Source: Marsupella aquatica (lineage: Eukaryota > Plantae > Marchantiophyta). From it: a DNA stretch of 64,000 bases. Below are positions 8,801 through 64,000 of this stretch, piece after piece. Numbering within the stretch: position 1 is the first letter of the stretch; the number at the start of each line of letters is the position of its first letter. Position numbers and translations under genes: made by a program. Location: the NCBI GenBank assembly GCA_973895155.1, contig OZ316893.1, positions 9,801,660-9,865,659 on the forward strand, given 5' to 3'. The notes below the pieces were generated by a model that was given only the letters and a program-made list of their open reading frames with translations, ran no database searches and was not told the origin of the DNA.

Positions 8801-10481
8801 TCCTAACAATGACTATACAGACAGCCGATTTACGTTCATTAAAAAGCGAAATGCAAAAGGTGATGTTATCAGATACAGAGCGCGGTTAGTAGCAAAAGGA
8901 TACACCCAGATCCCAGGCAGGGACTATGATCTAACATATTCACCAGTAATGGACGTGACGACATTCAGGTATTTAATTGCTTTCTCTCGCAAACACCAGT
9001 TATGCAATATCCTTATGGACGTAGTAACGGCATACCTATATGGAGTCTTAGACTCCGAAATTCATATGAAAGCACCAAAGGAATTACTCGAAAGAGTGGC
9101 AGAACACATTCAGGGGAAGCAATACCCGAACCTGAGCAAGGATATGAAGTCGGGAATTGACCAGATTATCCCTAATGATGATTGTAAAGGCCTTGTGTTG
9201 AGCAGTGGCAACACACAGAAAGCACCACTCCAGTACCCCGGAAAACGAAGGACTGGACAGCAGGCATTTGCTGTGCAAGTATTGAAATCCATAAACGGCC
9301 TGAAACAAAGCGGCCGTATATGGTACCAGAAATTTAAAACCGAAATACAAGCACTCGGATTTATTACAGAAGACATAGCGCCCTGTATATTCATCAAAAG
9401 AGTAGACACAGAGTTCGTCGTGTTAGCGCTATATGTCGATGACATTAATCTCTTCGGTACACAACGACTATTACGACAAACAATCAACACAATGAAGGGC
9501 ATTTTTGAGATGAAAGAACTGGGAGAACCGACTTACTGCCTCGGCCTTCAGTTCGATCACCTACAGACAGGCACATTCATTAGCCAGTCTACCTATACAA
9601 ACAAAATCCTCCAACAATTCAATATGCAAAAGGCATACCCGGTATCAACACCAATGGAGCTGAGATCCTTAGACACTGCGAAGGACATGTTCAGGCAAAG
9701 ACAGGACAACGAACCAATACTAGATTCAGATAAGCCATACTTATCGGCTATCGGAGCCCTCCTTTACCTGGCCAACAACACCCGACCGGATATATCCTTT
9801 GCAGTGAGCCTCCTCGCACGACATAGCGCGCACCCGACAATACGCCACTGGAACGGCATAAAACGAGTATTCCGATACCTCCAAGGAACAATTGACATGG
9901 GACTATTCTTCCCCAACGAAAGCGAGGATGAACTTACAGGATACGCGGACGCTGGATACCTCTCAGACCCCCAAGATTCAAAATCGCAGACAGGATACGT
10001 CTTCTTGCAGGGTAAAACCGCCATATCTTGGAGAAGCACGAAGCAGAGCCTAACCACAACGTCATCGAATCACGCCGAAGTAATTGCCCTCTATGAGGCA
10101 TGCCGCGAAGCGATTTGGCTCCGTAGTATAATCACACATATACTCAAACAGACAGGAAAAACCTTACTCACAAATCCAACCACCATCTACGAGGACAATA
10201 GGGCATGCGTCGACCAGATAGTTACAGGCTACATGAAGACCGATCGAACCAAGCACATAGACCCGAAATTTTTCTTTACGCACGAACACAGCGGAAAGCA
10301 AATACAAGTAAAGTGGATAAGCTCACAAGACAATTGCGCCGACCTCTTCACCAAGCCGCTACCAGCGACTACACATCGAAAGCACGTCAGCGCCATTGGA
10401 ATGCATCGTCTCTCCTCCCTAACCTCCTCGACTAACGACAACTCCCGACACGAACACACAGCCAACGCAAAATCGAAGTAG
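5868..10481 (+). pseudogene. Copia gag-pol polyprotein with a single in-frame TAG (8727-8729)
   Basis: Zn knuckle CYRCGKIGHLKKNC, protease IIDSGTSH, LWHCRLGHPG, integrase D/D/E (NADVCG, RVDGAGEF, NGMAES), RT LYVDD, RNase H GYADAGY and IYEDN. The two ORFs are in frame across WPH*KEAI. Confidence 0.92.
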
Positions 10482-10820: not shown

Positions 10821-10967
10821 TGTTATAACCCATAATATGACTTAACCCTAGTATAGGATAGGTTAACATTAACCCAACCATGTTAACCCTTCTGGACTAT
10901 ATAAGTCCTTGGCATAATGGAAGTGAGTGGGGATTATTGACTACTATCATCTTGTGTATTCATAACA
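10821..10967 (+). repeat. 3' LTR of copia element 1
   Basis: Identical to the 5' LTR and followed by TSD GTAAG. Confidence 0.97.
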
Positions 10968-13099
10968 GTAAGTCCTTTTTCCACTCGCGTATTCGTGAAT
11001 ACAAAGACTAAATCTTTTGCCCGATCATTGGTCAACCTGTTACGAATTTTTGAATGTATAAATCCATACGAACTCCAATTCCGTTCGCATGATGATGCGC
11101 ACATTTGTTGGTGAGTGATTTTCCTAGCTATGATCCTTAGATCCTTGTAATCAGCTCCATATGCATGCCACCACTCTCCCGGACTGAAATTTTCAATATT
11201 TGCTTGGGCTCCTCTTATGCCAACAGATGTGTTTGGCAATTTCTTTTGAGCCTCAAATGCCTGCTTTTGGATGTCAGAAATAAGTTTAGTGACATCACGA
11301 TCATGGTTGATCCCTGGCTTCACACTGTGTTCTGCGTATCTCGCAACATAATCATTGAAGCCTCTACATAGCTCAGCATCTCCGCCCACATCTTCGTCTT
11401 CATCAAAGAAATAATGAGGATTCAAATATGCTGCAGCTAGCATGAAATCGTTAGTAAGCGATTTCCTTTGATCCATATACACTTTCCTTATCCTTGGTTT
11501 CAGGTACTCAGTTACTAAGGAACATTCTTCCATGCTCGCCTCCAGATCAACAATCCCCTTTTTCAAGCTCCAATACAACCAAGCTGACTGCGGCGAGTCC
11601 CCATCAAATTCACGTAGCATCTTCACCAATGGTGTGAAAAAAGTTATTGTAGAACTCACTTGAGCCCAAAATGCATCTTGTTGAATCCATTGCTTCAGTT
11701 CGTCTGCCTTTGCTCTCGTCATGTGCCCGTCCGACCTTGAGTGACCTGGAAGCCTATCACGATAAAGATGCCATTTGTCATCAATGACCATTTCTTGCAA
11801 GGGACCTCTTAGCTCCAATGCTCTTTGCGCCATTAAGAAATTGGTCGCAAATCTTGTTGCATTTGGATTCAACAATTTTCTGTAGGCAGATTTTCGAACA
11901 AAAATTGCGGAGAGTTTTTGGGATGATGAAACTGCTTTTACTATCCACCTCAAACGTTTGAAAATGAATTTGAATGGATTCCGTCCACTTTCATCTACCA
12001 CAATTTTCTTATGGCCACACATGTCTTCTAGTAACAAATTAAACACGTGGGCAGCGCACCAGCTCCAAGTAACATGCGGATATTTTTGCATCACTATATC
12101 TTCACCTCCAACTCGATTAGCGGGTGCACCGTCGGTTACAATTTGTATGATGTGATCCGCGCCAATTTTGTCTATATATTTCAGCCACATCTCTCCAAGG
12201 TATCTTCCATCTTTCTTATCAGCTTGTGCAGCATTCCAACTATCCAAGAAAATATCTCCTCTACAAGTCAACAACATGACATTCATCAAGGGTTCTCTTC
12301 GGATATTTTCCCATCCATCTGATGAAAGGGTATATCCAAAAGGTTTGGCCTCCTTCATGGTTTTTGTCATGTCTTTTGCAACATCAGCTTTGACCTCCTC
12401 CAACAATTTGAATCGGAGGTTTCGCATACTAGGAAGAGAATACCCATTAACAATTCCTTTAGAAGTCTCTGCAACTGCTTCTCGAAATAATGGATTCTCT
12501 GAGACATTGAACGGAATACCACTTGAGTAAAAAGCTTTTGCCCACAGCTTATCCAAATGTGATCTATTTGGAATTTGATAAGCATCTATAATAGGGTTTG
12601 AAATACTTGATGCCCTAGCCGCATTACTCATGTTTGGATTCTACTCCACGTCAACATGATTGGAGCCTCGAGTTGAAGCTTGCGAATTTGTCGTTTGGAT
12701 AAACGATCTCCGACCTCTGGCAGACAATAGTATATGACTTCCATCGCTTCGTTTGTACCTAATAGAAGAGTCCACTTTGATCACATTGTACATTCTATTG
12801 ATGTCATCCAATTCGATGACACCATAGAGTCCTAGGCAAGGTGGTGCATCCCCTTTGTATATATTTCCCATCAAATGTGCCCTTGCTCGTGTTGCATGGA
12901 ACGTAGTATATTTTTTGCAAAATCGGCATTTTCAATACATAAGATTGATGTCATGACAGCTTGACGGAGAGTCACATCGATCAAAATATTTCCATACCGG
13001 GGAAAATTTTGCACTACGTTCTCGCGCCGGATTTCGACCTTGTCTAACAGGAGTTGAATGGGCTGATAAGTCACCTGACTCATCTTCATCTGAAGACAT
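10968..13099 (-). pseudogene. hAT transposase, 5' part (BED zinc finger, DUF659/RNase H-like DDE core, hATC dimerization domain)
   Basis: One frame from ATG 13099: VWKYF...Y*KCRFCKK...RARAHL (BED, TGA at 12932-12934), TAG at 12641-12643, then SSDGW, VTDGA, WCAAH, TRFATNF, EWW, ASSCERNWS, RNRL. Confidence 0.92.
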
Positions 13100-23200: not shown

Positions 23201-26090
23201 TCCATCATGTTAGTAGACCTGGCACTGCCGAGGTTGTCGTGGATGCGGAAAATGTGAGGCCCAATTTGATTGAAGTTGAATCTGACAACAATCAGGCTGT
23301 TGGAGTTCCGAATTTCGAGACAGGCAATTCTTGTTTCGATTTGGCCGTAAATGAGACAAATGAAAGTCGCCGAACATTGGAAATGGAAGGGGAACGTGTT
23401 AGAGTCAGGGAGCTTGCGCTGCAAGCAGCTGCAAAGAGGATGAGTGAAGCCGCGAAGATATTTCGTGCAGGCCTTCCACTCACAGAAGGGGAGACTGGAG
23501 AAGCTTTTCATTTCCCTAGAGATCCAGAACATCAAAATATGGGGAGTGATGCCATTGAGAAAACTCCCTTGGATCAGGAGTCGGCACTTGTAGCTGCATC
23601 TGTACCTCTGCCAGTAGAAAATGAGTCAATTGGCTTGAAAACAGGAGGTGCAGATACAGAGCTGTTGGATTCAAGTTTTCCGATAGATGAGCATCTTTTC
23701 AGACGTGACAGACCCGACGGTTGGCCACTGGACAGATCACGTAATACTCTCCATCGTCAGGCTGAGGCTGCGGCAGAGGGGCGTTTGAGAAACTTCCAAC
23801 TATCCCAATCAAGTGCCTCGGGAGGTGTCTACAGGCAGGTCCCTGAGGAGGCAGAGAGTAGGATTGGCGAGTACGAGATGGAATCCGTTCCAATGAGAGG
23901 AAGGGTCATTGGAAGGGCTAGAATTCCTGAGTCATCGCGGCTTCTTTCTCGACCGGAGAAGTTACAGCGGACATCTGATGGCTCACCTCACAGTAACTCA
24001 CCAGTTTCTGTTATTGTAGAGAGGCAAATGGGGGGGGGCAGCAATCGTCAGCGGCAGACTCCGCTGTCTATAGGCGGTGCCAGGTATGATTCAGTCTGTT
24101 TTTCTTGTCCGGGATTGGTGTATTACACGCACAAAGGACGAATCATTCACTGCTAGATGTGAAAACACTCTAATTCCAGTTGTATCTGCTCCAATGGCGA
24201 GCAGTGTTTGCAAAGGCTGCCACGTCAACTGTTATCGTTTGGTCCTATCAAGGCCCCACCTTTGCTCTAGTCTACGTTTCAAAACTGTCTGTTGTGATAA
24301 TTTTGAAAGTATCTTCTGACTAAACTCGTTTTGGGGCGCATTGATCCATGGGTTTATTCGTCTCTGACTCGTTGAAAGAGGGAAGTGTATGCCTTAATTG
24401 ATAACTGTGCTCTACGTTTGCAGCCGTGCCGGGCCACTGGAGGCAGCACTACAACGATCTAAGGCAGCCAGTGAAGGTGACAGCAAAGGAAAAGCGATAG
24501 TACCAGAGCACGTTGCCCTCCCTATGGCAGTGCCTTCCAGCAGTATTCAAGTGGAAGCAGAGAGAAACAGCTCATTAAGAGTTCGCCTTGAGGATGGCAA
24601 TGTTGTTCTCCACACTTTTCCTGCAGGTGAGATCAGTGTTTGAGTTTGGGGTTTGCCAAAGTATGTAAGAGTTGTCTGTTGATGATTGATTCAATCAAAA
24701 TAAGTTACACCTGTCAGTACTGAACGCCTTTGGTTGTCATGTCTCTTGCACTTTGCTGCATACTCGAGGTTACTTACTAGGAGCCGCTTCGACAGAGGGG
24801 TGGAATTGTTTCAATAAGTATCTGACGTGTACTAGAACACTCGCTGATGGTTCGTCGTTGGGTCGTAATTGTGCTATTGCGGTAGGGCAAATCTTTGAGG
24901 GTTGTTTTCACGAAAGCTGTTGTTGGTGATGTTTTAGACACGGTGCTAAGGGCAGTTCGAGATTCAGTTGTACCAGAGGGTGCCGTGTCTTCCGAGTACG
25001 GCTTTGTAAGTCTCATCGAAAAACTATCTCGTGAAAGGTTTTGGGTTGGTTTTTCTGTTTGTGCAACTTCATTGACTAGGAAACCTGCGCTTGGATTTTT
25101 GGTTGTCATTGAAGCCTTGGTACTCAAAGTGAAATTCACATTAATAGTTTTCCTACGTGGAATTCTTTTTTCGGTGTAGGTGGTGCCATTTCCAGAGCCA
25201 CATTTTATGGAAGGAGATGCCTTGGCTGCCACTCTAGAAGAAGGTAAGACAGACTATCAAATTTGAGTATTTTTGGAGTCCATCTTGTGCGTTACTTGTT
25301 GAAGCCTGGGTTTTGGGTTACAATCAGTCGACATGGTCCTCATGTATTGTGAACTCGTTTGGAACAGTGGGGCTTGTACCTCGAGGGACAATTCATCTCA
25401 CGAAGTTGGCTACCAGAGGCATGGTTCGACAGGGTAGAAGAGCGTCCCGCCGAAGACGGTACCTTGAAGATAGTGATGATGAAGAGGACCAGATTGAGGG
25501 TATGATCCGTCATTTGGCACAGCGCATGGGTGATCGCCCAGATCTATCTTATGAGGAATTGATGGAATTGGAAGAGAGCATTGGCAGGGGTATGTCCATC
25601 ATTCGATACATCTTTTCAGGATTTTGTGGAAATGAGTAAAAAAGGAATTATACTAGCCGGATGGAGATGAACCTTCTAGCTGTGCCTATTTAGGATTGGG
25701 TTTCCTTTCTTTTAAATTGTATGGACTTCAGCCTTAGATTCGATCCTTCGTTAGTTTCTGGCTTCTTGTTTGGTAATGTTTACTGTTCCAAACCTGTTGA
25801 CTGTCACCTTCACTAAGACTAGTTCTTTTGTTTTAGCAGTAAATGTTGGCGTACCAGAGCAGGTTATCACAACTCTCCCAACTCATATTGTGAAAGCAAA
25901 GAAGGTGGAGACAGCGTTAGAAGATAATGCAGAAGGAGAACTGGATCTGTGCATAGTGTGCATGGCTGAAATGGTTGATGGGGAGGAGGCTTTATCTCTG
26001 CCTTGTCTTCACACTTTCCATACAGTATGTATACGACAGTGGTTGCTTCAGTCGACTTGCTGTCCCACCTGCAAACAAGCCTTAGTGTAA
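20278..26090 (+). CDS. UBA-UBX-UBX-RING-H2 protein, ~1053 aa, 10 coding exons (putative CDC48/p97 adaptor with an E3 ligase domain)
   Basis: Phase-consistent GT-AG exons 20278-21036, 21466-21697, 22417-22561, 22742-22911, 23039-24083, 24424-24626, 24938-25005, 25180-25243, 25368-25589, 25837-26090. UBA LEAMGFPSEWCERALK; UBX1 ELHIRCP...SLKDVRTYV...IPFPRQEF...TLAEAQLVPRGTL; UBX2 SLRVRLEDG...VPFPEP...TLEEVGLVPRG; LSYEELMELEESIG; RING CIVC...CLHTFHTVC...CPTC. Confidence 0.88.
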
Positions 26091-28596: not shown

Positions 28597-29690
28597 TAGC
28601 CTCCAAGGTTGCAGCCCTTGACCTTGAAAGTGCACTTGTTTGCCAAGAATTCAGCCCTTGCCCTTGAAAGAGCACTTGTTTAGCGGTGAGGGCTGGCTCA
28701 AGATAGGGAGAGGCAGGAAAGTCTGGGTGAGTCCCATGGTTCCATCTTAGGGCCCATTATTTTCAGGACCCTCACATGCCCCCTCACATGCAAGACAGCC
28801 ATTATTAATAAGATTTGATCCAAACTCTTCTACGTGTAAGCTTCGGTTTCTGCACCCTACGAACAAACCCACCAAAGCAAAACCTACACAATTACCAACA
28901 GCAAAAAAAAGGACGAACGTGGATCACATTTGGGAAGACGCCTAAATCGAACCCCTTCCAGAATGAGAATAGTGCGACAATGCGATCTGGATTCTCCAAG
29001 AATAGGATCTGTCACGAATTGAAAAGCTCTTTCATACCCGAGAGCAAATTCATCTGCACTGGAGAATTCTCCATGATTCCATCAACCAGTCGACACCGAC
29101 TGACGCACACGAATGAGCTAATCTCGTAACTGAAAATGGGCGAAACGACACTTTGTTCCCTGCTCTCTCTTTGGCAATTTCATAGCCTCATTATGTAACT
29201 ACTACGACGAAACGAGTGGCTCCAATTGTCGCCTTGCCCGGCTGGTGCCAATTAGCTCCAGGAGATGGCTCGCCTGACCTTGTTGCGTAACAATGACGAG
29301 CCATCGATTGGTTTACGAGAAGTCGGGCAAGGTGTCGTCGATTCTGTAGCCAGCGAGAGTCCCATTGTTGAAAATGCGGAGCCTCTTCATTTTGGTCGGC
29401 CTAAACTGTTCTTCCATTGGTGAATCCCATCGAAACTCATCGGAGGAATTAAGGTTCTTCCTCATCAGCGACGCGGCTACGGTACCATTCTGGCTTGACC
29501 TGACCCATTCTTCCATTGATGAATCCCATCGCAACTCACTATACTCATTAAGGTTCTTCGTCATCAGCACGGCGGTAGGGTACCATGCGGCTGCACGAAA
29601 ACGATTTTCTATCTGGAACGACAGCTCCATCATCCTCCGGGCCGTAGGAAAAGGTAAACTCAGTTGAACGCACGCTACGAAAAGAAAACC

Positions 29691-30281
29691 ATGACCGCGG
29701 AAGACATTAGAGAAGAGGCCGCTGAAACCGCGCCTTCCAGCGGAGCGAGCGATTCCGATGATGAGCAGAGAGAGGATGCGAAGAAAACCTACGACATCGA
29801 TGAAGGAGAGAACGCTTCGGGGAATTTCGAGGTCGACACTATTGTAGAAGCAGAGAGGAGCGAGGACGAGGACGACCAATCCCATCGGGGCGAAACGGAG
29901 GGGACCCTTGAGCACCACATTGGACCAGATTCTTACGGAGACGGAAAAGCCAAAGACGACGAAGAGGATTGCCCGTTCTGTTTGTACATGAAGGCCGGCG
30001 AATGCGGAGAAAGCTTTGTGAATTGGGAAGAGTGTATAAACGAGGGAGAGAAAACGGGGGAGGACGTGGTCGAGAAGTGCGTGCTAGTCACTCGCTTGTT
30101 GACGCAGTGCATGCGAGCCAATGCGGACCATTACGGCCCCGTCTTGCAAGCCGAGAAAGCCATGGCCGCAAGCGTCGCCAGTGGGGATGGTCTCGACGAC
30201 GCCACGGCGCAAGCAGAACTCACATACACAGAGGCGGTCGAAGTCGGAGCCCAAAGTGCAGTCCACGAGGCTGAGGGATGA
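29691..30281 (+). CDS. GCK-domain (twin CX9C, CHCH-like) protein with an acidic N-terminus, intron-less
   Basis: ATG at 29691; CPFCLYMKAGEC-x9-C...C-x9-CMRANADHYGPVLQAEK is the plant GCK family pattern. Confidence 0.85.
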   Translation: MTAEDIREEAAETAPSSGASDSDDEQREDAKKTYDIDEGENASGNFEVDTIVEAERSEDEDDQSHRGETEGTLEHHIGPDSYGDGKAKDDEEDCPFCLYMKAGECGESFVNWEECINEGEKTGEDVVEKCVLVTRLLTQCMRANADHYGPVLQAEKAMAASVASGDGLDDATAQAELTYTEAVEVGAQSAVHEAEG

Positions 30282-30970: not shown

Positions 30971-33537
30971 GATGGGTAGACACCATATGTGAAATGGATC
31001 CAAATTCTAGTAATAATTTTTTTGGGGCTGTCTATTTGCCACCATACTTGCATGTGCCCCAAGTTCTTGTAAAGCTTTTTTTTGTTTTGTTTTTGTTTGG
31101 GGGGGGGGGGGGGGGGCATGGTGCCTGAATGTGCCCTAAGTCTTTGCCAACTCATTTTATGGGTCAGGTCAGATTGAACCTCATAAGGAGTTCGAAAAAA
31201 AGAGTAATCCTCACCCACTTCTTGTAAACCCACCTTTAATGTTCAGTTGCTTAAAGCTCCTGGTTTTGAATTTTGGTGATGAGGGTAGTCCAATTTCTAA
31301 GACAAATACAGCAATTGCTGCCACCTTCATTTTCATAGAAAAAGTACCATTTACTGGCACCTTTGTTTTAGAGAAAAAAAAAAAAGGTAGAGAACCCACA
31401 CTAGTCGGAGGGAGAGCTCTTTTTACAAGCAACAGCCTGCTGCTCTCTTTAGAGCTCAGCCTTCTCTTGAAGGAATGAAGAAGGTTCAATTGAAGAAGAT
31501 CAGAGTGATGGCTCAGCTGCAAAGAAGTTAAGAAGTTTCTTTGCTAGGTTACAAGTAGCATGTGAAGATCAAGTGGGAGCTCTGCAAGTGAATATGTTTG
31601 GTGCAGAGTTTAGACTCTCAAATGCTTTTAAAAAATCAATGAAAAGATTGCTTCACACAATCATTTTGCAATCCATTATCAAACATTTCCCCCCAGAAAA
31701 ACCTATGTAACACTATTTACCTGTTGATAGCAATCAATGTTTACACCAAAAAGTGTGGGTAACACTATTTACTGCCATGTCTCCAAACTTGTCTTGCTTT
31801 GCAAATAATGTGACCCACCCTAATTACTGTAAGCAGCGTAGATTGACTTAGCGGATGTAAAAACTCCCATTCCACTGCGCTGGTTATGAAATGGGATGCA
31901 TGGCAGCCACAATTGCATGAAGTCAATACGTGGGTTTCTTCCAATTTTGAAGCAAATTTCTTCAGACGTAGTCAATCTTGAACCATAGATCATTCATAGA
32001 GTTGGGAAATTAGACTTTAGTGGCAAACGAAACTGTCAGCGGATTCGCGACTATGTGGCTCTTCCATTTTAAGGCAGTTTTCTTGTTCCATGTCGTCTAG
32101 TTGGAATGATTGAGGAACAATTATTATCGCTCAGGAGCTACAGTTTCACAGCAAAAGCGTCTTAGTAGAACAATTCGCTCAGAATTATATTTCCCTCGTT
32201 CGCAATCGAATTTACTAGAGGGTCGGTCAAACTGGTAAGCGAAGCCCAAGATGAAGATGAAAGGCAACTGACAGTTTGGGGACCCAGTGTTATTTAGGTG
32301 GCCTTAGTTCTCACTGCACAATTTGTCAAGAAGAGGGCGCTATACATTCTCCAGTGAAGACTTGGGCGGGTTGGTTAAGAAACTAAGGCAGCACTGTGGT
32401 AGCGATGTGAACTAGCACACGTGACAAACTACCTTCTCATTCTGTGAATTGGAGAGCTGCAGAGGATGTATTTAGAAGGGCGTGGTTTTCACTCTTTGTT
32501 TGGCAGTTGAACCTGCTAATCTGTACTGTCAATATGTGGACATGTAAACAATTTCACGGGGAACTTCCAAAATGCTCATTACACTTCTTTTGAGACTCAT
32601 CATCTTTAATCGAGTGTCGTATCCTCAGGCTTATCCTCTGGGGAAGACGTTAAGTCAGTGCTTACTGTGGTCCTTGTGATATTGGGAAGCGGCACTAGGC
32701 AAATGGAAACTCTGCCACAGAATCGACCCACGACTGTAAACACCCATATTATGTACTTTACTCCGTGAACAAATCTTGCTCGTATTGCAGATTGCACAGT
32801 TTTGGCCAGCAGACGATTGCAACATGCACTGTAGTCCAGTAAAGAAGCCGCGTATGAACTTGTCATTACCCCCAACATCCATTCGCTTAGAGAACATGTG
32901 GTACGACGGACCAGGACTCTAACGCCCTGGTCGTGTATGCAGCACAGGCACGAGGGACTCGCTGCCACAGCTTGCCAATGAATATTTCTAAACGTTTCCC
33001 CTTGATTTCTACTCTTGCAGTCTACTAATTAGGCGAATATTGCAAATCTCATGATACTGGAGCTCTCCAAACGCTAATCCTTTCCTGTCACAGTTGTTGA
33101 TCCTGATCTACTTCCAAGTCACATGAAGATTACAAGAGCCACCATAGTGGGAATCTACTTCCACGAATTACTGGTGTAATCGAGGTACGTCAAGCATGTT
33201 TTGACAGCAGTCCAAGGGATACCGTGCTTGCAATTTCATAAATCACTAAGCATGAAGAGAAGAGATAAGCCACCGAATTTAAAAATGCCTGGCACCAATT
33301 TCTAGTCAATGCAGAGGCCACTGTCCACGGTGCCATGAGAAGCCAACAGCTCCATGGCTAAGCCTATAAAACACTCTGCACCAAAAACAAATCAGATCAG
33401 TTTATTGGGTCAACTGGTGCAACCAAAGGGAGCTTGAGACAAACCACCCCATGTCCAGTTTTAGTCGGGTTGTGTACCGGACATATACAAGAGTCATTAG
33501 AGATGCGAAGGCAGTGGGCGTACAGACTAATGCTTAC

Positions 33538-36500
33538 CTCTTAACCTCCCGAAGTCTTGGATCATGAACACTAAATGGGACTTTACACCAGCGGCTGTCA
33601 TTTCTAGGAACCGGCACTTTCGGGTTATCTGCTGCATACACCTGCACACAAACATTTCAAAAACCGTGTTTTGAATGTGGGTTTTGGGACTTTTAAAGGT
33701 CTTGAGTAGCCGAGCCCACTGACGAAGAGAAAACACGAGCTCCTATTCAGAAACCAGAACTTTAAATGAAATCTGCTCAATGTTTGAACCATTTTGCATC
33801 ACAATCTCTTGTTACTCTGGATATATAAATCAATCCTCCCACTGGTAAAGACTCGCTTAAGTGCAGAACAAGCAGACAAGGCAGCGCTGAACCTCATTCC
33901 AGACACGTGTTGTACCACTGAAAAATAAGATCTCGCAATCTTGAATCTCATGACCCCACTCGTCAAGCTTCTGCAAGTAAAACCACCAGGCAGAATGAGG
34001 TAAGGATACTGTCCTGAGGTAATGTCCATCATTGTACATCTTTTGAGGTTAGAGGTTAATTGAGCGAGGCATATACACGACATAGGAAATCAAACCTTTA
34101 CGCACAATAGCAAGCAGATTTATTAGGTTCCCGAGGCTTCAATTATTCTTAGAGACTAACTTTCACAGCGCTGGTCCTTTTGGCAGACATGACTTGTCAT
34201 CTAATAGTGTAGGGATGCCGCCCTGCATAGTAGAAAGTTGCAGTAATCAATGCACTACTCCACGTTGCGGATATTTTACAGAGAGTTCTTTTCTGCTGAC
34301 TGGTTGGAAAAGCCGATGGATTCTAGCCAAAGCAAGGCCGAGTTTGTGCAAAGGGTGGGTACTTATGATACTTGAGGGCTAACTCTGGCTGGACAGATTT
34401 GGTTGAGTCGTTAATCCGAAAGTGTTCTATCAAACATAGTTATCAAGGAATCGTGTTGTCAATTTTCCAATTCATGAACATTTTAGTGAGAAACAACTAT
34501 AAAATTGAAGATAGACAATGTACCTCGCAGACACGAGAGAAGAATCTGTCAGCTTCCCTAGCACGAATGGCACCGCCGACTGTCATTCGACCAGGCCCCC
34601 CTTGCCTCAGATACTTTAGTTGTGACTTTCCCTGTTTTGCACGGACTGTATATGCAGTTATCACCTGTTACAAGTCAAATTGGGATTAAAATGTGAAACT
34701 GGCATAGAGGGAGACTACGAATAATGTGAAAGAAAAACACTTCCACTCTGATTCTGCAGCATTTTCGCTTTGTTAAAGATTCCTCTAATATTATAGGAAA
34801 TTCTCTTTGAAATCATCCTTAACTTTCTAACAACATGGTTGCATGCACAGCACTCAAGCATGAACTTCACGAAATTCATCAAAATTAGTGTAGTTGTGCT
34901 TTGGTCAATATCTAAATTGAAATAATCTAATCGACTCGTAAACAGACAAGATATCACCTTATGTAAGAGAAGTTGTCCATCATTGAAAATTGCCAACGCA
35001 GCTGCATTGCTTGACAAAAGAGCTAGAAGCTGCTTATTTCCTTGACGCTCTCGCCTTTGATGCAAGCTTTGCAAGTATCTGTAGGCGTGAAAGTGACCGA
35101 CTAAGGAGTTGATCCTCAGAACGCAAAGGGAAAATTCCTTTCAAAATTTGCTAAAGGATGTTGGTCATATCCGGAACCACAAAACCAATTCTCCTTGCTC
35201 TTGAATTTGCTATTAATCTCAACTCGTTTACGTCTGATCTGACCTTAAACCATTGGTCCCGGAAAGCGATGAATGTTCCTAATTCTTCGTCTAGTTTATC
35301 ACTCAAAGCTTATTCTCTACACCAGGAACGACGTTTGCACAAACTTTTGGCAACAAGGTTCCGTGCACATCTAGTTATAATCTCATCTTGTGTATTCGCT
35401 GGAGTATTCATTCATAGACAAGGTACCAGAACAGTACTCCGTTGGTGTGCAGCAAGAAGGAAGCGGGGGCTGAATTGAAGGGGGGATGAACTCAATTCGC
35501 CAACCTCCTCGAGATGGATTCACCTGGGTACAAGAAGCTTCCAGCACATACGCCAACGACTATCAGATAAGACCGAGGCACATGATCAGGCCTCTATATT
35601 TTCCAAACTGAATTCACATGACGGGCTGTGGCACCAGAAATTGGGACCAGGAATATCCAGAGAAGAAATCCGATAGAACTTCCTCAATCACATGCCAAAT
35701 TAGCACACATACGAAAGTGTAGGTCGTCACCAAGAGAATGAGATTATCAAGACTTTCTTGCTCATAAAAGTGCGATCTCCTGATGACCCGATACAGCATA
35801 TAGCCACGCCCTTAAACCGTGGCTAATCAAGATCTATTACAAGTACAAAGAAGCTAACCTACTCTCACTCCAAACATAATCTTTGCATTATCTCTCAAAA
35901 CACAAGGGAGACGAAGTGAGCTAAATGAGGTCTCGTTGAAGAATTTCGCATTACACCTCCAGGAGAAGCGAGGGATAGTATGAATCAACGACCTAGCATA
36001 TCTCATGGGTAGACGACATAAAACAACAAACCGTCACATTACACAATAGCAAACCCAAGGGGCAAGGCCGACCAATTTTACAATGAAAGAGCATATTCAA
36101 TTTGAAACTGAATGTACCTCCAAAAATCTCTTCTGCTCACAGTCCCATGCCAGGTCTTCACATCCGCAAAGACAGTCGTACAACACATCTCCGGTTTCCT
36201 CCCACGAAAACTCTTTAAGGTGCTGGAGCCCCAGTTCTCCCAACCTCAACCGACTTACTTTTGCTGGTCCATCCAAAGTATCATTCACTGCGTCAAAAGG
36301 TGGTTCAAAGTTTTTAATAATTGAGAGACCTTGTTCCCTGTCAGGCATTCTGTTTGTGTCTGGTAGCATGTCAAATTCACCAGATTCTGCAATGGGCATT
36401 TTCCCATCCGTGATCCTGAATTTCTCCTTGGCAAACTTATGGCATGCCCCGAATTCATCAACTGGGACCATGCTTTCATCAAGAGCAAGACTACCATTGC

Positions 36501-36939
36501 CCCTCCAGTTGACCTCCTGGAGCGATACATCTGGCAAGGGGTTGGCTTTCAACCATTCTTCAAACAAGTCGGAATCACCACCACCGTTACCTCTATTCTT
36601 TCCCTTCACAGAAATTGCTCTCGAACCCCGAGGAACCCACCTAAAATTTACCAATTCCCACACTTCGCGCAGACCGAGAGAGGTAGCTGGACGACCCAGA
36701 ACTACCTGTTGCTTGTTGCGTAGCTGGTGTCCACTCGCGGTTGCATGTAGCGGAGCTGCCAAACGAATTAGGGCAGCAGAATTGCGGCACTGGATGTGCT
36801 GATTGGAAGGGTATTTCAATGATGATTCTTCTGCTGATGTTGTTTCCTTTGATCTTCCCACCGTGATCGCTGCCACCAAACAACCACTGCTCTGGAAGGG
36901 AAGATGTTTGGATGGTTGGACACACCTCAACAAAAACAT
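33538..36939 (-). CDS. Multi-exon VLRF1 (Vms1-like release factor 1, Bacteroidetes bVLRF1-type) domain protein with a transit-peptide-like N-terminus; last exon unresolved
   Basis: Exon 1 is 36939-36118, with a probable exon starting at 35523. Phase-consistent exons 35078-34958, 34664-34524, 33970-33893 and 33641-33538 encode LLALLSSNAAALAIFNDGQLLLHK|VITAYTVRAKQGKSQLKYLRQGG...AIRAREADRFFSRVCE|KLDEW...ILFFSGTTRVWNE|VYAADNPKVPVPRNDSRWCKVPFSVHDPRLREVK. Candidate stops at about 33306 or 32606. Confidence 0.78.
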
Positions 36940-37120
36940 GGCTACGATTGACTGGTAAATTACCAAACCGCGATGTCTGCAGGAGTCGTCTTTTCTTGTG
37001 TCATGAGTGTGGTGGATTTTATGTCTCCAGAAGAGAGAGAAGAATTTCATCTATTGTTGGTTTTTCAATAGAATTCTACACTAACAAGACGCCCTGCAAA
37101 ATTTCTCTCGTATAAAAATC

Positions 37121-37533
37121 CTCTTGATCTATTGTTTTTCCAATGAAAATCTGCCAAGTGCCCCTCCAAGTATCACAGCTATGACCCCAATTACTTAAGA
37201 GCATCTTAGCAATAGGCTACATTCGTGAATATATCATCAGATATGGTTTAGGGCACAAAAGTCTAGTAGTCAGTTGTGCTGTTTTTTTTTGTGAGTCTTG
37301 AACTCTTGATCTATTATTTTTCCAATGAAAATCTGCCAAGTGCCCCTCCAAGTATTACAGCTATCCCAATTACTTAGAGTATCCCAGCCCTAGGCTACAT
37401 TAGTGTCCCTCCAAGTATTACAGCTATGCCCCCAATTACTTAGAGTATCCCAGCAATAGGCTACATTCGTGACTATAATCATCAGATCTAGTTTAGGGCA
37501 CAAAAGTCAAGGAGTCACTTGGGCTGTTTTTTT
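37121..37533. repeat. ~180-bp tandem duplication with an internal sub-duplication, just upstream of the VLRF1 gene
   Basis: CTCTTGATCTATT...CAATGAAAATCTGCCAAGTGCCCCTCCAAGTAT...TTTAGGGCACAAAAGTC twice. Confidence 0.85.
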
Positions 37534-39084
37534 TGGGGGGGGTCTTGGTTTTTTTTATAAGGCGCTCCATGAGAAGCTATACACATATTGGCGGATACCG
37601 CATTTGTGACCCGTGCCCAGTATTCTTTTGTAAAAGGCAAAAGAATTGTTTGCTTGATGCTGATCACATGTCACGAGCCACTAGTGCTAAGACAGGCCTA
37701 GTGAAGATTACATGTTCTTTACCAAATCTGACAGATCAACTGTAGTTCATGCGGTTTTACCCCTCTTTTGGAATTCACAACTAGGGTCACTGCTTGAAAA
37801 TGGCTTTGCTGCACATCACAAGGCTAGACTATATCTTTGTTATGGAGGACAACCACCTTCCATCAACTATGTAGTCACCTTGGCTAAATTCCTCACATGT
37901 AGTAGACTATATAGTCACACAAGTGGGAGTGTCCATGCATGCCTCATAGTGACATACTTTTAGAATGTGTGTGAAGAATTATGTGAACCTTTTGTTCATG
38001 AAATGCCTTGCTTTTGTACAGGTCGTCTGGGAATCAAGAACTATAATAAAGAGTTGCGCCCTTTTTTTAAGTGGTGGTCATTTGAATTTGAAGTTGCTGT
38101 GTCAGAAAAAATCTAAAGAAACTTAGTATAGAAAAAACAAATTAACCAAACCCTACAAAAAGGTAACCCTGCAAAACAAGTACAAACAATCCTTTCTATT
38201 CTTCTCTCAATACTTTCCCTATAGTAGGCCAACGGATTTCCCCCCTCTACCCTCCCAAAGTACATACCCTGACAAATGTATTTGTCGTCCCCCCTATCTC
38301 TCTCAATCCTTCTCTATACAATATTTACCCTTGCCCCAATGTACAATTGGTTCTGTCCAAGAGCCAATTTGGTTTAGTAGAAGGCATCCTATTCTTTCTT
38401 CTCATTTTACAAGAAGTTTGCATTTTTTTCACCTTTTCTAAGGCCAAATCGATATCAAATCATTTAGCTAAATGATAACTTTAATAAGTGAAAAACAATT
38501 TATAAGTCCATTTTGTACTCAAACTAAGAAAGATGGTACACTTATCAGTAAGCACATAATCCAATGAGATTGCTTTTACTGATAAGTGCACACCCTTTTT
38601 TAGTAAGGAAAATTTGGACTTATGGACATCAAATTTAGGGCAAGTATTCACATTTTGTGTAATGAGTCACACGGCTGCTCACCTGTGGAGATGCCATTTA
38701 TTACTAAGTGAAAATTTTAGGGGGTGTGCACTTATCAAGGAATGGAAAAACAAATTAATGCAATCGGATAGTGAGAGTGTCACTTATCTAGAGTTCACTG
38801 TATTTGCATGATTGTGCTATACAATGAACTCAATCTGGACCCCCCCCCCTCCACTTGGTACTTGCTCCAAGAAAACAACTACACTAAAAAAAAATGGATA
38901 TGTTTTTGAATGAAATGACAACACAATTGAGGGCAATAACTAAAGCTTCATCATGTGCAGTTTCTTCACATTTTAAAAGGTTTACAAGGAATTAAAAAAT
39001 GAAAAATACAAAGACAAAAATCATTCTTAACTGGTGATAGTTTGTGGTTGTTGTTACTCATTTTCTGAGCCCTTTTTGTGCAAC

Positions 39085-39645
39085 AGTTTTTTTCTTAAGA
39101 ACATCTTATGCGACACCACATCTTTTTTTCTTAACAGCATCTTGGGTGACACAACATGTTTTTCTTAAATAACAACAGCTTGGGCGACAGAACGTCTGTT
39201 TTTCTTAATGACATCTTAGATGATACGACATTTTTTTTCTTAATAACATCTTGGGCAACATGACATATTTTTTTCTTAACAACATCTTGGGGGACACAAC
39301 ATCTTTTTCTTCATGACATCTATTGTGCAACACATGGGTATTTTCTTCACGACATCTTTTGTTCTCAACAACTTGGCCGACACTACATCTTTTGTTATCA
39401 TCGGCATCTTGGCCGACACAACATCTTCCTTCTCAACAACCTCTTGGCCGACCCGACATCTTCCTTCTCAATGACCTCTTGATCGACACGACATCTTTTG
39501 TCATCACCAGCATCTTGGCCAAAACGACATCTTTTTAAATTCTCAACATCTTGGGCGACACGACATCTTTTTTCTCAACGACCTCTTGGCCGAGACAACA
39601 TCTTTCTTCTCAACAACCTCTTGGCTGACACGACCTCTTTTGTGC
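39085..39645. repeat. Degenerate ~38-bp tandem array (CAACATCTTGGCCGACACGACATCTTTTTTCT), probably TE subterminal
   Basis: About 14 recognisable units, adjacent to the hAT remnant. Confidence 0.8.
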
Positions 39646-54517: not shown

Positions 54518-57500
54518 ATGAATTAGATAGAGAAGCTTCAATTTAAGGCTCTAACTATTGATGGTGCCAATTATTTATCCTGGTCACTTGATGTCAAAGC
54601 ATATCTTTCATCAAAAGACCTACAGGACACTATTTTAACAGATGCAGGCCTAACATTGCAGCAAAAGGCGAGAGCATTAATCTTCATACGTCACCACCTT
54701 GCAGAGCCACTCAAGATCCAATATCTAAATCAATACAACCCCCAAATTCTCTGGGAAGATCTAAAATCAAGGTTCGATCACATGCGCCTAGTCTCTCTGC
54801 CGGCAGCACGCCATGATTGGATAAATTTGCGTGTGCAGGACCACACTTCCATATCCAATTACAACGGAGAACTCTTTCGCATCACCTCTCAACTCGCAAT
54901 ATGTGGCCACCCAGTTAACGACGCCGAGAAGATTGAAAGAACTCTATCCACGTTCAGCACGGGAAACCTCATCCTTGCATCCCAATACAAAACATGGGAT
55001 TTACTAGATATTCAGAGCTTATTGCTCATATGCTTCTTGCTGAGAAGCACCAATTACTCCTACTGGAAAATGCAAAATCTCGCCCACCAGGTACAACCGC
55101 TCCACCACCTAAACCTGAAATAAATTTCAACAGACAGAATGATAAAATCAGAGGCAGAGGACGTGGAAATTTCAGGGGGCGAGGACAATGACCATATAGC
55201 CGAGGCAGAAACCAACAAAGGGGCAGAGGCTATGGACAATTCCATAATTTGGAAAATACATCTTTCGGAAACTTTTATCGAGGAAGAGGACAACGAGGAA
55301 GAGGTAGTGGATACAAAGGCAGAGGCCGTGGCGGAGGCCGTGGAAGAGGATCCAATACTTGGACAAGAGAGAACGAAAATCTGACTCAATGTTTCAGGTG
55401 CGGCACAAAGGGTCACTTACAGAAAAATTGTCGATCCCCTGCCCACCTAGTCAGACTTTATAAACAAAGCATGGAATTACCTAGTGATGAAGCCCATGGA
55501 AACTACATGGAAACTATAGATGATATTGAGGGATATGCACCAGAAGTAGATACTGCTCAATTGGGAGATAATCCCTCTATGCTTGACAATCATCATAATT
55601 GTATTGTCGATAGCGGCACATCTCATTCAATCCTACACAACAAAGACTATTTTCTAAGTATCACCCCATCCCACAGATCCATGACAACCATAACTGGACC
55701 TAATCATATAGAGGAAGGTTATGGTCCAGCACAAGTCAGATTCCCCAAGGGCACAATCCTCCACATAGACTCAGCCATTTATGCTCCATGGGCCACTCGA
55801 AACCTGATAAGTTTCAGTGACATACGCGCCAACAGATTCCACATTCATACAAAGACTTGTGGAAACCATGAAGTCCTACACATTCTGGAGAATACCAAAT
55901 CAGGGAGATTAGTGCGAGAGATACTTCCTATATATCCCCCTGGACTCTACATCACCCGAATATACTCATATCATGCTACAAGTACTTCACTTACTTTAAC
56001 ACAAATATGGCATAATCGCCTTGGACATCCTGGCACGAGTATGTACCACAATATACTGAAGGCTACCGTGGGCATACCTAAAGGCGTTCACCCATCCGCT
56101 ACCAGCAAACCCTGCCTCGCATGCTCACAAGGGAAAATGGTTACTCGTCCATCACCATCCAAGACAATACATAAGATCCCACAGTTTTTGGAGAGGATAC
56201 AAGCTGATGTTTGTGCCCGATTGACCCTCCTTCTGGCCCATTCCGATATTTCCTGGTTATCATCGATGCCTCCACTAAGTGGTCGCAGGTCTCATTGCTC
56301 TCTACCCGTAATCTAGTCTTCCCAAGAATATTATCGCACATATTGAAATTAAAACATCAATTTCCAGAAAATCCAATCAAAACCATCAGAGTTGATAACG
56401 CGGGAGAATTTACCTCCAAAACCTTCGATACCTTCTGTGAAACTGCAGGGATTGATACTGAATACCCGGTTCCACATGTTCATTTTCAGAATGGTCTTGC
56501 GGAATCCATAATCAAACAAACACAGATGGTGGCCAGACCCCTACTGATGCAATCAAACTTACCAACATCAGCTTGGGGCCATGCAGTCCTACATGCAGCT
56601 GCCCTCATTAGACTGAGACCATCATCATTTAATTCCCAGACCCCACATTTCCTAGCATATGGATTGCCACCAGATATTACACATCTACGAATTTTTGGCT
56701 GCCTGGTACTTATCCCAATTTTAGGTCCCAAAAGAACTAAAATGGGACCCCAGAGACAACGAGGCATCTATGTGGGCTTTGACTCACGCTCTATTATAAG
56801 ATATTTAGAACCCTCAACAACAGATGTCTTTAAAGCACGGTTCCAAGACTGCAATTTCTTTGAAGAAGAATTTCCAACCCTTACAGAAGACCCCAAGAGA
56901 AATGGAGAGGTCCCGGTGAAAGACTTACAATGGTTGTCTCCTCGCCTGCTTACAGAGGACCACCGAACTAAAGAAGCAGATCTGGGAGTACAACGAGTTC
57001 TCCACTTACAACAAATGCTGATGAAACTTCCAGATGCATTCAACGATGCAGCCACTGTAACTCGCTCACAATTAGAGGCAGCCAACATACCAGCTCAAAT
57101 TTTGCGGCAGGCTACACCAGCCACTGAAGCTGCACCAAAGGCAAAAAGAGGCCGCCCACTGGGATCCAAGGACTCTCACCCAAGACAGTCACAAACGAGT
57201 GCAGCCCATCCATCTCCCACAATTATACCAACTCTAGAGCCATCTTCACAAGGAACAACCGATAATGAGGAGATCACAATTAATTATGTACATACCGGGA
57301 AGATACTGCAGCGTGATAAAATACAGGTTGATGATATCTTTGCATTCCAGATTTCTGAGGACATTAAAAATACTACCCCTGATCCCCTAACAATTGCTGA
57401 GGCCTGAACTCGCCCAGACTAGCCACAATGGGAGCTAGCTATAAATTCAGAACTGGACCCCCTAATAAAACAAAAAGTTTTTGGGCCCACTATTCCTGCA

Positions 57501-59195
57501 CCTGCAGGACTTCATCTTACAGGATACAGATTTATTTTTGTTAGAAAATGAAATGCGAAAGGAGAAGTTATCAGACATAAAGCGCGCTTAGTCGCGAAGG
57601 GCTATACCTAGATTCCTGGTCGGGACTTTGATCAAACATACTCTCCTGTAATGGATTCAATCACACATAGATATCTATCGCATATGCTCTTCTACACAAA
57701 CTAGTTATGCATATTTTAGATGTGATTACTTCCTATCTATATGGTATCCTTGATACCAAAATTTATATGAAGGCACCCCCGGAACTCATCAAGCGATTGA
57801 CTTTTCACATTGAGGGGGAGAAAACCGGTAAAATAAACCCAGGTCTACAACCTGGAGTACATCAAACTTGTCCTACAGGCAATTTGAATTCAGTGACGAC
57901 TGAAATTCGACCTCCAGTCCCGACCAAGCAAGATGTGTTGCACACATCTGCTCAGCGGAAATGAATGTCTTCCTCGCAGGTTACCCCTGTTATACAAACA
58001 AAGAAAGTTAAAAGAGAACTTGCAGTTCAGGTACTTCGTTCTCTATATGGTTTAAAACAGAGTGGGTGTACCTGGTACAAATGATTCAAAACTGAAATGA
58101 TTGCACTGAATTTTATTACTGACGACATTGCCCCTTGCCTATTTCTCAAACAGGAAGGAAATGAATTTGTCATTATTTCAATTTATGTGGACGACATAAA
58201 TATTTTTGGCACAGCAACAATCACAACTGAGACAATAGACATCCTGAAGAAGACATTCGAGATGTGGGACATAGGTAAGCCCACCTATTGCTTGGGCTTA
58301 CAATTTAATCACTTGCATAATGGTATACTAATTAATCAATCTACCTATACTGAGAAGGTATTAAAACAGTTTAACATGGCTACTGCTTACCCTGTTAGCA
58401 CTCCTATGGATTTGAGGTCCTCAGATCCTGAAAAGGATACATTCAAGAAATGGACTGCACTGGAAGCAATTCTTGGCCCAGAAAAACCTTTACCTCTCAG
58501 CCATCGGGGCTCTCATGTACCTGGCTACACAGTCCCGTCCTAACATCTCTTTCGCAGTGAATCTTCTTGCATGCCATAGTGCAAAACCAATTATCCGTCA
58601 CTGGAATGGCGTAAAGCGAGTATTCCATTACCTACGAGGAACCACAGACCTGGGACTATTTTTTCCCAAGAAGTCAGAAAATCTATTGGTGGGATATACG
58701 GACGCAGGATACCTTTCAGACCCTGACGACGCAAAATCCCAGACGGGATATGTTTTTCTTCAAGGAAGTACTGCTATCTCATGGAGAAGCTGCAAACAGA
58801 CATTGACAGCTACTTCGTCTAACCACGCGGAGATCATTGCCCTCTACGAAGCCACTAGGGAATGCATTTGGTTAAGACACTTGATAGATCATATTCAGAC
58901 AAACACAGGCAGACCTCGATTTGATAAACCTACGATTATCTACGAAGATAATCGACCCTGTGTCGATCAGATAGTGCAAGGATTTATCAAAGGGGATCGT
59001 ATCAAACATATAGCACCCAAGTTCTTCTATACACATGAGCAGCATGGCGAACAGGTCAATGTGCAGTGGATTCCTAGCAAGGAAAATTGAGCAGATTTAT
59101 TTACGAAACCACTACCACCATCCCTACACAGAGAACATACATATGGTATTGGAATGAGAAGCATGACATCAATGTTGCAGGGCATCGATAGGTAA
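54518..59195 (+). pseudogene. Copia gag-pol with multiple nonsense mutations and frameshifts
   Basis: MN*IEKLQFKALTIDGANYLSW start; CFRCGTKGHLQKNC, IVDSGTSH, RVDNAGEF, IYVDD, GYTDAGY. Stops at e.g. 54524, 55189, 57405 and 57420; frameshifts at about 54990, 56215, 57680 and 58490. Confidence 0.92.
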
Positions 59196-62569: not shown

Positions 62570-64000
62570 TTTTTTTTTGTTTGTTTTTTTTTTGGGGGGG
62601 GGGGAGAACCCCTCAACTTTTTAATTTTGAATAAAATCCGAGAAAGCCCACTGACGGGGGGAAACCAGAAGGCCAACAGGGGCAAGGGGTGGGCAAACCC
62701 AACAAAAGCCCAAGGCAGAGGCTTAAAAACTCCCGGCAAAATCAATTAACCGTGGAGAAAAGTCTGCCCAAAAGACACTAAAACCAGAAGAGCCTAACAG
62801 GCAAGGGCAGAGTGATCTCAGAGGTCCGACCTAGTTATCTGAGCCATACAATGAAAAGACACAATCATGAGAGAGGACTAGCATTGACTCTCCACCAGTA
62901 AAACTACCAGGCAATGAGAACCTGCTAAACTTCATATGATATGATTTTGCCTCCACCGATTCTCTGCCATCTCTATTTTTCAGCATCAACATATCGTTTG
63001 GCTTTGATCAACCTTGTAAATTTCCTGCTCAGTGGTACAATGTGAGCAGCTGCATATAAGCTGACAGGCAATTCTGATAGAATCAAATGAATGTCAAAGG
63101 GGAGTCTGGCACAAGATTTGAACATTTGCTGATTCCTGCTATTCCATAGCATCCACAATATCTGATAAGTGAAAGGAAGCTTGAGGATAGATACAGTGGT
63201 TTGATCCAGTGCCGACTGTATCAGTTGAATCAAGTCAAAGCCAGACCATTGAATCACCCCAGGAAAACAGTGTGCAATAATGTCCCAGCAGTTTCTGGTA
63301 AAAAAGCAGAATTTGAAGATATGAGGAATAGTCTCTAATTGTCCAGGGCACAGAGCGCAGCAGCCGTCGCTCTTCCCAATCCTCCGAGCTCTGCTATGAG
63401 TGAAGAGTCCCTGAGCAATTACTCTCCAAATGAAGACTTTAGCACGAGTGGATAAGTAGGAAGACCACAATTGTTTCCAGAAATAATTCCACTCATAAGC
63501 AGATTTGTTGCAACTCCAAATAGCGTTCTAGCTTAGCTCATCTAAGCCTTTTGGCCTGAGAAACTGATAAGATTGTGCATTTGCTATTTTGAATTGACGA
63601 GGTATAGTTTGTTGTCTTCCCACCGCCACTGTCGGGCATTAGCTGCAACGGACTTGTTGTCCACACCTGCAACTCTGATGACTTGCAGTAGATTCTTACA
63701 GACTTCTATTGTAGTGTCTGAGACCTGTCTCAGTCTACCTAATTTTAGAGAGAAATCCTTCGTCGTATTTTCCGGATACTGCCAGCAGTTGCTCACTTTC
63801 TTGACTCCTAGTCGTCCGCATAGGATAGCAAGATCCATAGAATCCTCCAAAGATAGAGAGTGGAAACCCCTGATACAACGGTTTGCATCAGGGATGCCCC
63901 AATGTCCAGGAATACCCAGTGTCCCCGGACTCATAGATTTGGAAGAGTTTATCTACGTATCTTGTCAAGTGTTCTAATCCATAATTATGCAAGTTGCAAC
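62570..64000 (-). mobile_element. 3' end of a LINE (non-LTR retrotransposon), running off the window
   Basis: zf-RVT-type motif WSSYLSTRAKVFIWRV...CALCPGQLETIPHIFKFCFFTRNCW in ORF 62973-63470; C-run then A-rich tail on the minus strand at 62570-62603. Confidence 0.85.

Follow-up and report, generated by a model that had tools for sequence, protein, structure and literature searches.

The whole stretch of DNA analysed here, 64,000 nucleotides of Marsupella aquatica (Marchantiophyta; assembly GCA_973895155.1, contig OZ316893.1, positions 9,801,660 to 9,865,659 of the forward strand) and referred to below as the window, contains on its minus strand (36939-33306) a seven-exon gene for a protein of 473 amino acids. 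The protein belongs to the VLRF1 clade, most likely to bVLRF1 and not to ANKZF1. We propose that it is probably imported into organelles and there frees nascent chains from the split large subunits of their ribosomes. This proposal rests on the exon structure of the gene, a match to bVLRF1 over its whole length, the catalytic residues, the lack of the ANKZF1 domains, the single green group in three trees and the composition of the N-terminal leader. The family and some of its algal members are already catalogued, flowering plants seemingly lack the gene, and its role in organelles is predicted; the window gene is a concrete candidate for the organellar release step, with a known catalytic residue, in algae and bryophytes that are amenable to tagging and knock-out.

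Exon structure of the gene

The splice model is based on homology. A search with exon 4 among longer proteins gave one match in seven candidates, a protein of Calypogeia fissa (P0001). With this orthologue as query, tblastn finds all seven exons, and the window protein is 75% identical to it over 361 amino acids. The frame is open across all codons and all six introns are of the GT-AG type. Exon 1 (36939-36118, codons 1-274; parts of the gene are given in its reading direction) encodes the leader, a conserved motif and an acidic linker, as well as the first part of the bVLRF1-like region. A second C. fissa copy (P0008) opens with the same leader and matches the start and first residues of the window protein; because it begins at the equivalent position, the gene start is placed at 36939, and an in-frame upstream ATG at 37050 was ruled out. 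Exon 2 (35523-35438, 86 nt) belongs to the N-terminal extension and has intron positions equal to those in Sphagnum, exon 3 (35078-34958, 121 nt) encodes the first core strands and ends in His342-Lys343 (34963-34958), and exon 4 (34664-34524, 141 nt, preceded by AG and followed by GT) carries the catalytic loop and then an arginine-rich helix. The borders of exon 4 are exactly those given in a preliminary description of this DNA made from its letters alone, and the spliced catalytic loop is as first written there, its preceding His-Lys being supplied by the end of exon 3. Exon 5 (33970-33893, 78 nt) was placed by homology to P0001, and exon 6 (33641-33538, 104 nt) by a Pfam scan together with P0001 homology. 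Exon 6 contains the D-x-R-W and P-R-L-R-E motifs, and the downstream D-x-R-W-x-K-V-P-F motif reported earlier lies in it. The gene does not end at 33538, as had been supposed: a seventh exon (33375-33306, 70 nt including the stop) encodes the end of the last helix, the last strand and the end of the protein, with 15 of 16 residues matching P0001.

Two Sphagnum-like metagenome loci (L003 and L005) have six of six introns at the positions and phases of the window gene. In another Sphagnum-like contig (L001) introns 1-4 are gone and introns 5 and 6 are retained. This contig looks like a partly spliced transcript and demonstrates splicing of an orthologue, not of the window gene itself. Its intron 2 junction (L001:779-991) is four bases short through an apparent GC donor upstream, which shifts the frame and marks a non-productive isoform. 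Contigs from four sequencing runs aligned to the window are DNA-like and contain no splice joints. One contig, from run X1, which may be the source sample, spans 32500-37164 without any difference from the window.

A decayed, mis-assembled or bacterial-contaminant sequence would be compatible with a splice model that rests on homology and not on RNA reads. Against this stand the open seven-exon frame with canonical splice sites, the identical X1 contig (with the reservation just given on its source), the eukaryotic neighbours of the gene, the introns conserved in Sphagnum and the Sphagnum-like contig with four introns removed. This reading is already largely refuted, and we regard it as extremely improbable.

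Probable assignment to bVLRF1

When 82 compact bVLRF1 matches are condensed into a profile of 229 positions, residues 240-464 of the window protein span its positions 4-219 and score 179 bits. The bacterial-type N-terminal extension starts at codon 240 (36222-36118 within exon 1), as placed by profile and pairwise alignment, and a Planctomycetota locus (L007) aligns from window residue 244, N-terminal extension included, with 40% identity over 218 amino acids. Membership in the Pfam family bVLRF1 (PF18826), expected in the preliminary description, was borne out by a Pfam scan in which the full-length Calypogeia orthologue P0001 scores 81.9 bits, above the cut-off of 27. Two of six exon stretches of the window gene that were scanned also match, exon 4 alone with 25.7 bits (E 1.2e-5), narrowly short of that cut-off, and exon 6 alone with 14 bits (E 0.049). 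The PF18826 model also matches ANKZF1 proteins, and a match to it does not separate bacterial from eukaryotic members.

PF18826 is the sole domain that a Pfam scan finds in P0001 and P0008, and the stop codon of the window gene lies 9 residues past the bVLRF1 domain. Exon 1 contains neither an ankyrin repeat nor a C2H2 finger, no ankyrin motif is present in the 3 kb downstream of the gene, and the one C2H2-like pattern in those 3 kb crosses a stop codon, in agreement with the first inspection. Ankyrin or zinc-finger domains were likewise found by Pfam scan in none of 43 relatives, which include every match longer than 260 amino acids among the best 150 of the green-profile search. With its six introns, the gene is, as initially described, an intron-containing gene of bVLRF1 type that lacks the accessory domains of ANKZF1.

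Catalytic loop and predicted fold

The four loop residues lie in exon 4: Tyr348 (34652-34650), Arg351 (34643-34641), Gly355 (34631-34629) and Gln358 (34622-34620). The loop, G355-K-S-Q358, fits the bVLRF1 pattern G-x-u-Q with the conserved R351, and the four residues align with Y285, R288, G292 and Q295 of yeast Vms1 (numbering counted back from the loop Gln). In yeast Vms1, R288, G292 and Q295 are reported as needed for release, with loss of function if changed, and Y285 as giving partial loss (PMC5989216). All four residues are invariant in 31 of 31 green rows and 86 of 86 prokaryote-type rows of the alignment.

An AlphaFold2 model of P0001 built from 107 sequences has a mean predicted local distance difference test score (pLDDT) of 75, with most of the domain above 90; an earlier model from 7 sequences was poor (pLDDT 41.5) and was not used. 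The model places strands and a helix in the N-terminal extension. The four best Foldseek matches to it are all yeast Vms1, followed by eRF1, with Balon further down. The predicted fold of the window protein is of the aeRF1/Vms1 type, without a bacterial release-factor domain of the GGQ kind.

The likeness to bVLRF1 extends over the whole length including the N-terminal extension, the G-x-u-Q loop and the absence of accessory domains, whereas the window gene is nuclear, has six introns, and adds to the domain a leader, a helix motif specific to the green group and an acidic linker; its nearest relatives found are from Planctomycetota. With Vms1/ANKZF1 (eVLRF1) the window protein shares the fold, the catalytic Tyr, Arg, Gly and Gln and, as its predicted target, the split large subunit, but it has no Rei1-type zinc finger, no ankyrin repeats and no room for VIM/VTC (VIM was not searched as a motif).

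N-terminal leader

The predicted organelle-targeting leader comprises about codons 1-115 (36939-36595) and is basic, acid-poor and fast-evolving, as judged by composition. Next comes F-D/E-x-W-L-x-x-N-P-L-P, a short motif conserved in the green group (at about codons 124-136, 36570-36532), which is a helix in the P0001 model (block pLDDT 70-86); the compact bacterial proteins that were inspected do not have it. Behind the motif lies the acidic linker (codons 137-239, 36531-36223), which is poorly conserved and has low confidence in the model. Identity to P0008 is 55% in the leader, 51% in the linker, 88% in the motif and 84-87% in the domain. The N-terminus had been described as rich in Arg, Ser and Leu and poor in acids; the second half of that statement stands, with Asp and Glu at 4% in the first 120 residues versus 14% in the remainder, while the richness is moderate only (R 9%, S+T 15%, L 11%).

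Leaders were compared in 27 non-duplicate green proteins selected because they begin with Met and have a recognisable motif. The count excludes P0002, the short Calypogeia copy P0001, and proteins without the motif or with an apparently truncated or acidic start (P0012, P0018, P0020, P0021). The 27 leaders are 19-132 residues long (median 48). In 24 of the 27 proteins the leader has a lower acid content than a stretch of the same length behind the motif (medians 2.7% versus 12.8%), and all 27 leaders are net basic, versus 8 of the 27 stretches behind the motif (p = 2e-5, a value that overstates the case since the rows are related). Compact bacterial-type proteins have a median of 15% acids at their start (78 rows), and only 3 of the 78 starts are as acid-poor as the green leaders. 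The resemblance to organelle-targeting peptides that had been pointed out for the window protein is a trait conserved across its green relatives, whose leaders also look like such peptides, and the window leader very probably directs import into an organelle.

Long leaders are found in the six streptophyte-type proteins (median 98), and the window leader has a weak amphipathic moment; both features fit the description of plastid transit peptides in PMC10363480. Among the algal leaders, many are short and rich in Arg, a character compatible with either plastid or mitochondrion. If the protein is imported, the plastid alone is a plausible destination, both organelles together a distinctly less probable one, and the mitochondrion alone slightly less probable again. 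A search of the atlas with the leader sequence gave no usable match.

Sequence variation was seen in runs X3 and X4 (organism B), whose second haplotype differs from the first in leader and linker by 17 amino-acid-changing and 4 silent differences, and in the domain part of exon 1 by 3 silent and no amino-acid-changing differences. The second haplotype has a one-base deletion at 36927 in both runs; a one-base insertion at 36821 is confined to X3. The deletion alone would stop the frame after 40 codons; together with the insertion, which falls shortly ahead of that stop, the frame stays open and its start is basic and acid-poor. The two changes are unphased, and in each run the sole contig spanning both sites carries the deletion only.

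Distribution and origin

A word-based search with residues 165-382 of P0001 gave 7 matches among 738 candidates, with Calypogeia, Sphagnum and Bryopsis named, and at E 0.001 a profile run against 1.84 billion representatives yielded 1103 matches, of which the best 150 were taken. Among 27 clusters looked up, one was bacterial and all 12 with a eukaryotic organism name were Viridiplantae; the named green genera are Calypogeia, Sphagnum, Closterium, Spirogloea, Chlorokybus, Cymbomonas, Tetraselmis (two), Myrmecia, Apatococcus, Bryopsis and Prasinoderma. UniRef labels some members VLRF1 domain-containing. The gene family is common to bryophytes, streptophyte algae and chlorophytes and of ancient date in green plants. 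The named matches include no vascular plant and neither Marchantia nor Physcomitrium, in a search that was clearly incomplete. For flowering plants, given their many genomes, this suggests loss of the gene; for Marchantia and Physcomitrium, the absence from an incomplete search is a weak indication.

Burroughs and Aravind (2019) described bVLRF1 as bacterial and heimdallarchaeal and the plant VLRF1 as the multi-domain kind (PMC6514570). The supplement to that work places six green-algal proteins under bVLRF1 without comment, and its main text is silent on green members. Five of the six also stand in its eVLRF1 list, where each of the five species has a second, separate entry. The same eVLRF1 list has canonical-length proteins of Marchantia (779 amino acids) and Physcomitrella (752 amino acids), and the bVLRF1 list as given there holds no land plants. 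The suggestion that the window gene is a second VLRF1 gene is borne out to the extent that green algae have a separate longer VLRF1 and that these two bryophytes have canonical-length entries (PMC6514570). Its presumed novelty in plants is to be narrowed: green-algal members were already in the 2019 supplement, and what the literature search, which covered few subscription papers, did not find is a paper on green or organellar bVLRF1, on land-plant members, or on their targeting or function.

Relationships were examined in three unrooted trees without eVLRF1 (ANKZF1) rows. The first (FastTree) comprised 117 domain rows, with fragments, near-copies and six prokaryotic loci left out; the second (IQ-TREE, quick mode) 74 rows, a subset of these plus nine loci of the Planctomycetota phylum; and the third (IQ-TREE, quick mode) 47 rows, after 27 further rows with long branches, odd composition or near-copies were dropped. 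In all three the green rows lie on one side of a single branch, with support of 99, 100 and 99. A recent or lineage-specific transfer is ruled out by this single green group together with the introns shared with Sphagnum. The best-scoring prokaryotes are Planctomycetota (L007; Uabimicrobium) and P0024, in a prokaryotic genome scan that was itself seeded by an alignment headed by P0024, and the exact sister of the green group is unstable between the trees. The affinity to a Bacteroidetes branch proposed initially was not upheld: the nearest prokaryotes found are Planctomycetota, and a tree with Cytophagia (Bacteroidota) as sister to the green group was rejected by the approximately unbiased (AU) test (p-AU 0.001, for a single subset of three Cytophagia rows held with the green rows, the group having been named after earlier trees were viewed).

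Yeast Vms1 scores 56 bits with a 20-row green profile and 70 bits with a 20-row bacterial profile. With the green profile, 95 of 110 prokaryote-type rows score above these 56 bits over a like stretch, the best reaching 154. The direct similarity of P0001 to yeast Vms1 is far lower, at 24.7 bits. The scores favour a green group that sits with the bacterial members apart from eVLRF1, for which the trees hold neither a row nor a root. We consider it likely that a separate transfer, presumably a single one from a bacterium to the ancestor of green plants, brought in the gene. The horizontal acquisition suspected earlier would thereby stand, as an ancient event that is not particular to this plant.

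The other possible origin is that the green group is a duplicate of eukaryotic Vms1/ANKZF1 that has shed its extra domains, or that both derive from one transfer. Two loop traits are common to green rows and yeast Vms1: a Thr after the loop Tyr, present in 31 of 31 green rows and in 2 of 86 prokaryote-type rows, and, at a position held by Arg in 83 of 86 prokaryote-type rows, a residue that is mostly small. Of the six green-algal proteins in the 2019 bVLRF1 list, five are found in the eVLRF1 list as well, and the trees contain no eVLRF1 rows. Against such an origin, the 40% identity runs over a whole bacterial protein including the N-terminal extension, yeast Vms1 (a single, fast-evolving eVLRF1) fits the bacterial profile better than the equally deep green one, and those of the best 150 green-profile matches that exceed 260 amino acids have neither ankyrin repeats nor zinc fingers. 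We consider this origin unlikely. A homologue search for ANKZF1, limited to proteins of 941-2685 residues, scored none, a search for an acVLRF1 outgroup gave one aRF1-like protein only, and scans of viral contigs found no relative, their sole match (L099) being due to chance.

Among prokaryotes, bVLRF1 has a scattered distribution (in the phylum of L007, 25 of 401 genomes have it), and no gene neighbourhood is shared across phyla in 66 loci. The Asgard archaeal loci L015, L016 and L021 form a supported group with two upstream neighbour families in common. In a locus from Oligoflexia (L024:2360-3544) one frame, cut by the contig end, fuses bVLRF1 with a CCA/poly(A) nucleotidyltransferase head domain (P0132); as one locus in 66, whether a real fusion or a lost stop codon, it is a weak hint. 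A compact subgroup (P0046, P0136 and P0149) has a loop that after the Gln is closer to yeast Vms1 than to other bVLRF1 and may be relevant to the origin of eVLRF1.

Proposed function

According to the proposed mechanism, the protein would enter chloroplasts, mitochondria or both by means of its predicted leader, bind large ribosomal subunits left with peptidyl-tRNA and free the stuck chain. If it is imported, its likely place of action is the split 50S-type subunit, where Gln358 would sit in the peptidyl-transferase centre. By analogy with Vms1/ANKZF1, cleavage at the tRNA's CCA end is the favoured chemistry and probably the right one, ester hydrolysis being a serious but lesser option. After removal of the CCA end, a CCA-adding enzyme would repair the tRNA. 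Plant organelles import such an enzyme. Vms1/ANKZF1 is described as sitting in the A site of the split large subunit and cutting the CCA terminus off the tRNA, which is left with a cyclic phosphate and then repaired (PMC7026593). CCA-end removal by Vms1 is also cited in work on rice OsVms1 (PMC11831146), which acts with the 60S subunit and Rqc2 in the cytosol, unlike the predicted organellar window protein.

In human mitochondria, C12orf65/mtRF-R frees chains from split large subunits (PMC8786322). This factor, which works with MTRES1 in mitochondrial ribosome quality control, does what is proposed here for the window protein: it acts on an organellar large subunit that has been split off with its peptidyl-tRNA and releases the chain. 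The likeness is functional only: C12orf65 has the unrelated GGQ fold of bacterial-type release factors, works by ester hydrolysis and was reported absent from green plants in a 2012 survey (PMC3472500). ArfB/ICT1 (At1g62850), MutS2 and HflX resemble the window protein in being nuclear-encoded, bacterial-type ribosome rescue proteins imported into organelles. However, ArfB works on intact non-stop ribosomes, ribosome splitting is the task of MutS2 and HflX, and none of them has the aeRF1 fold. For plastids, MutS2 has been put forward as the factor that splits collided ribosomes, with the subsequent steps called uncharacterised in a preprint whose main text does not mention Vms1 or VLRF (10.1101/2025.09.02.673837). 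The release of nascent chains from the split large subunit is stated there to be open for plastids, and in PMC9757039 for bacteria. If our proposal is true, the step missing after MutS2 splitting in plastids would be supplied, a role of bacterial bVLRF1 would be revealed, and a first functional handle on the bacterial family would follow.

It is tentatively suggested, as a scenario with rather less than an even chance, that the ancestor of green plants lost C12orf65/mtRF-R and gained a bacterial bVLRF1, which with a targeting peptide became the release factor for split organellar subunits, a tRNA cutter of aeRF1 fold working on the bacterial-type ribosomes of chloroplasts and mitochondria; algae and bryophytes would have retained it and flowering plants would have dropped it.

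Several points weigh against the proposed role. The leader test is one of composition, and its 27 rows are related and were selected for Met start and motif. Some green models have no leader or an acidic start (P0018, P0020), which may be short gene models or real exceptions, and the Calypogeia copy P0001 starts 76 residues later than P0008, without most of the leader (the two copies lie on different contigs and are 93% alike). Canonical cleavage motifs are not significantly enriched, the plastid motif occurring in 3 of 27 leaders (p 0.09) and the mitochondrial one in 3 of 27 (p 0.51); a narrower motif, picked after the sequences had been viewed, occurs in 5 of 27 (p 0.004). Flowering plants seem to manage without both the window-type gene and C12orf65, which weakens the argument for a replacement, and no experiment on any bVLRF1 was found in the literature. 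As for the origin, the unrooted trees without eVLRF1 and the two loop traits shared with yeast Vms1 count against a separate bacterial transfer.

Some of these points would fit a second, cytosolic Vms1 that works on the 60S subunit without Cdc48 coupling, or a protein seated on the outer surface of an organelle, with the leader as a disordered basic tail. The leader diverges as fast as the linker, it is missing from some gene models, and yeast Vms1 handles stalled mitochondrial precursors from the cytosol (PMC7026593). Yet acid depletion and positive charge persist in leaders of 19-132 residues that share no sequence, and both cease at the conserved motif, five green algae are listed with a separate longer VLRF1 gene, and the protein lacks the zinc finger and ankyrin repeats by which Vms1 also grips the 60S subunit (PMC7026593). 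We find such a cytosolic role improbable.

An imported protein could also have another task on ribosomes or tRNA, such as CCA cutting or a block of the A site that shuts down translation under stress (desiccation, cold, dark), or a check on large-subunit assembly. Related proteins of the aeRF1 fold are hibernation factors, Balon is among the fold matches and inhibitory roles were proposed for baeRF1 families (PMC6514570). An accessory, stress-linked role would agree with the apparent loss in flowering plants, the 66 bacterial loci reveal no neighbourhood across phyla that would indicate a pathway, and the literature found holds no test of any bVLRF1. The full catalytic set is, however, invariant in 117 of 117 rows, unlike in non-catalytic families, and the nearest solved structures are those of Vms1 on the split large subunit. 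A task of this kind seems to us rather unlikely, though less so than the cytosolic role, and we retain release of nascent chains from split organellar subunits as the probable function.

Neighbourhood of the gene in the window

Domains found among 105 frames scanned in the window (kinase, RING, GCK, copia and hAT) mark a eukaryotic neighbourhood, and the window resembles a nuclear contig of leafy-liverwort type, to judge by the Calypogeia match. A GCK-domain frame (29658-30281, plus strand, E 1.7e-26) lies tail to tail with the bVLRF1-type gene. Protein kinase and RING-finger domains are found at 882-1697, 2599-3966 and 25755-26087 (plus strand). Two copia-type retrotransposon remains (5844-10478 and 54527-58540, plus strand), a hAT transposase (10937-12640, minus strand) and a zf-RVT frame (62976-63527, minus strand) are also present. 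Upstream of the gene there is a short frame from 37004, and directly upstream, at 37121-37534, a block of about 105-135 bp occurs twice with 89% identity. A degenerate repeat array at 39083-39643 consists of units that are about 70% identical.

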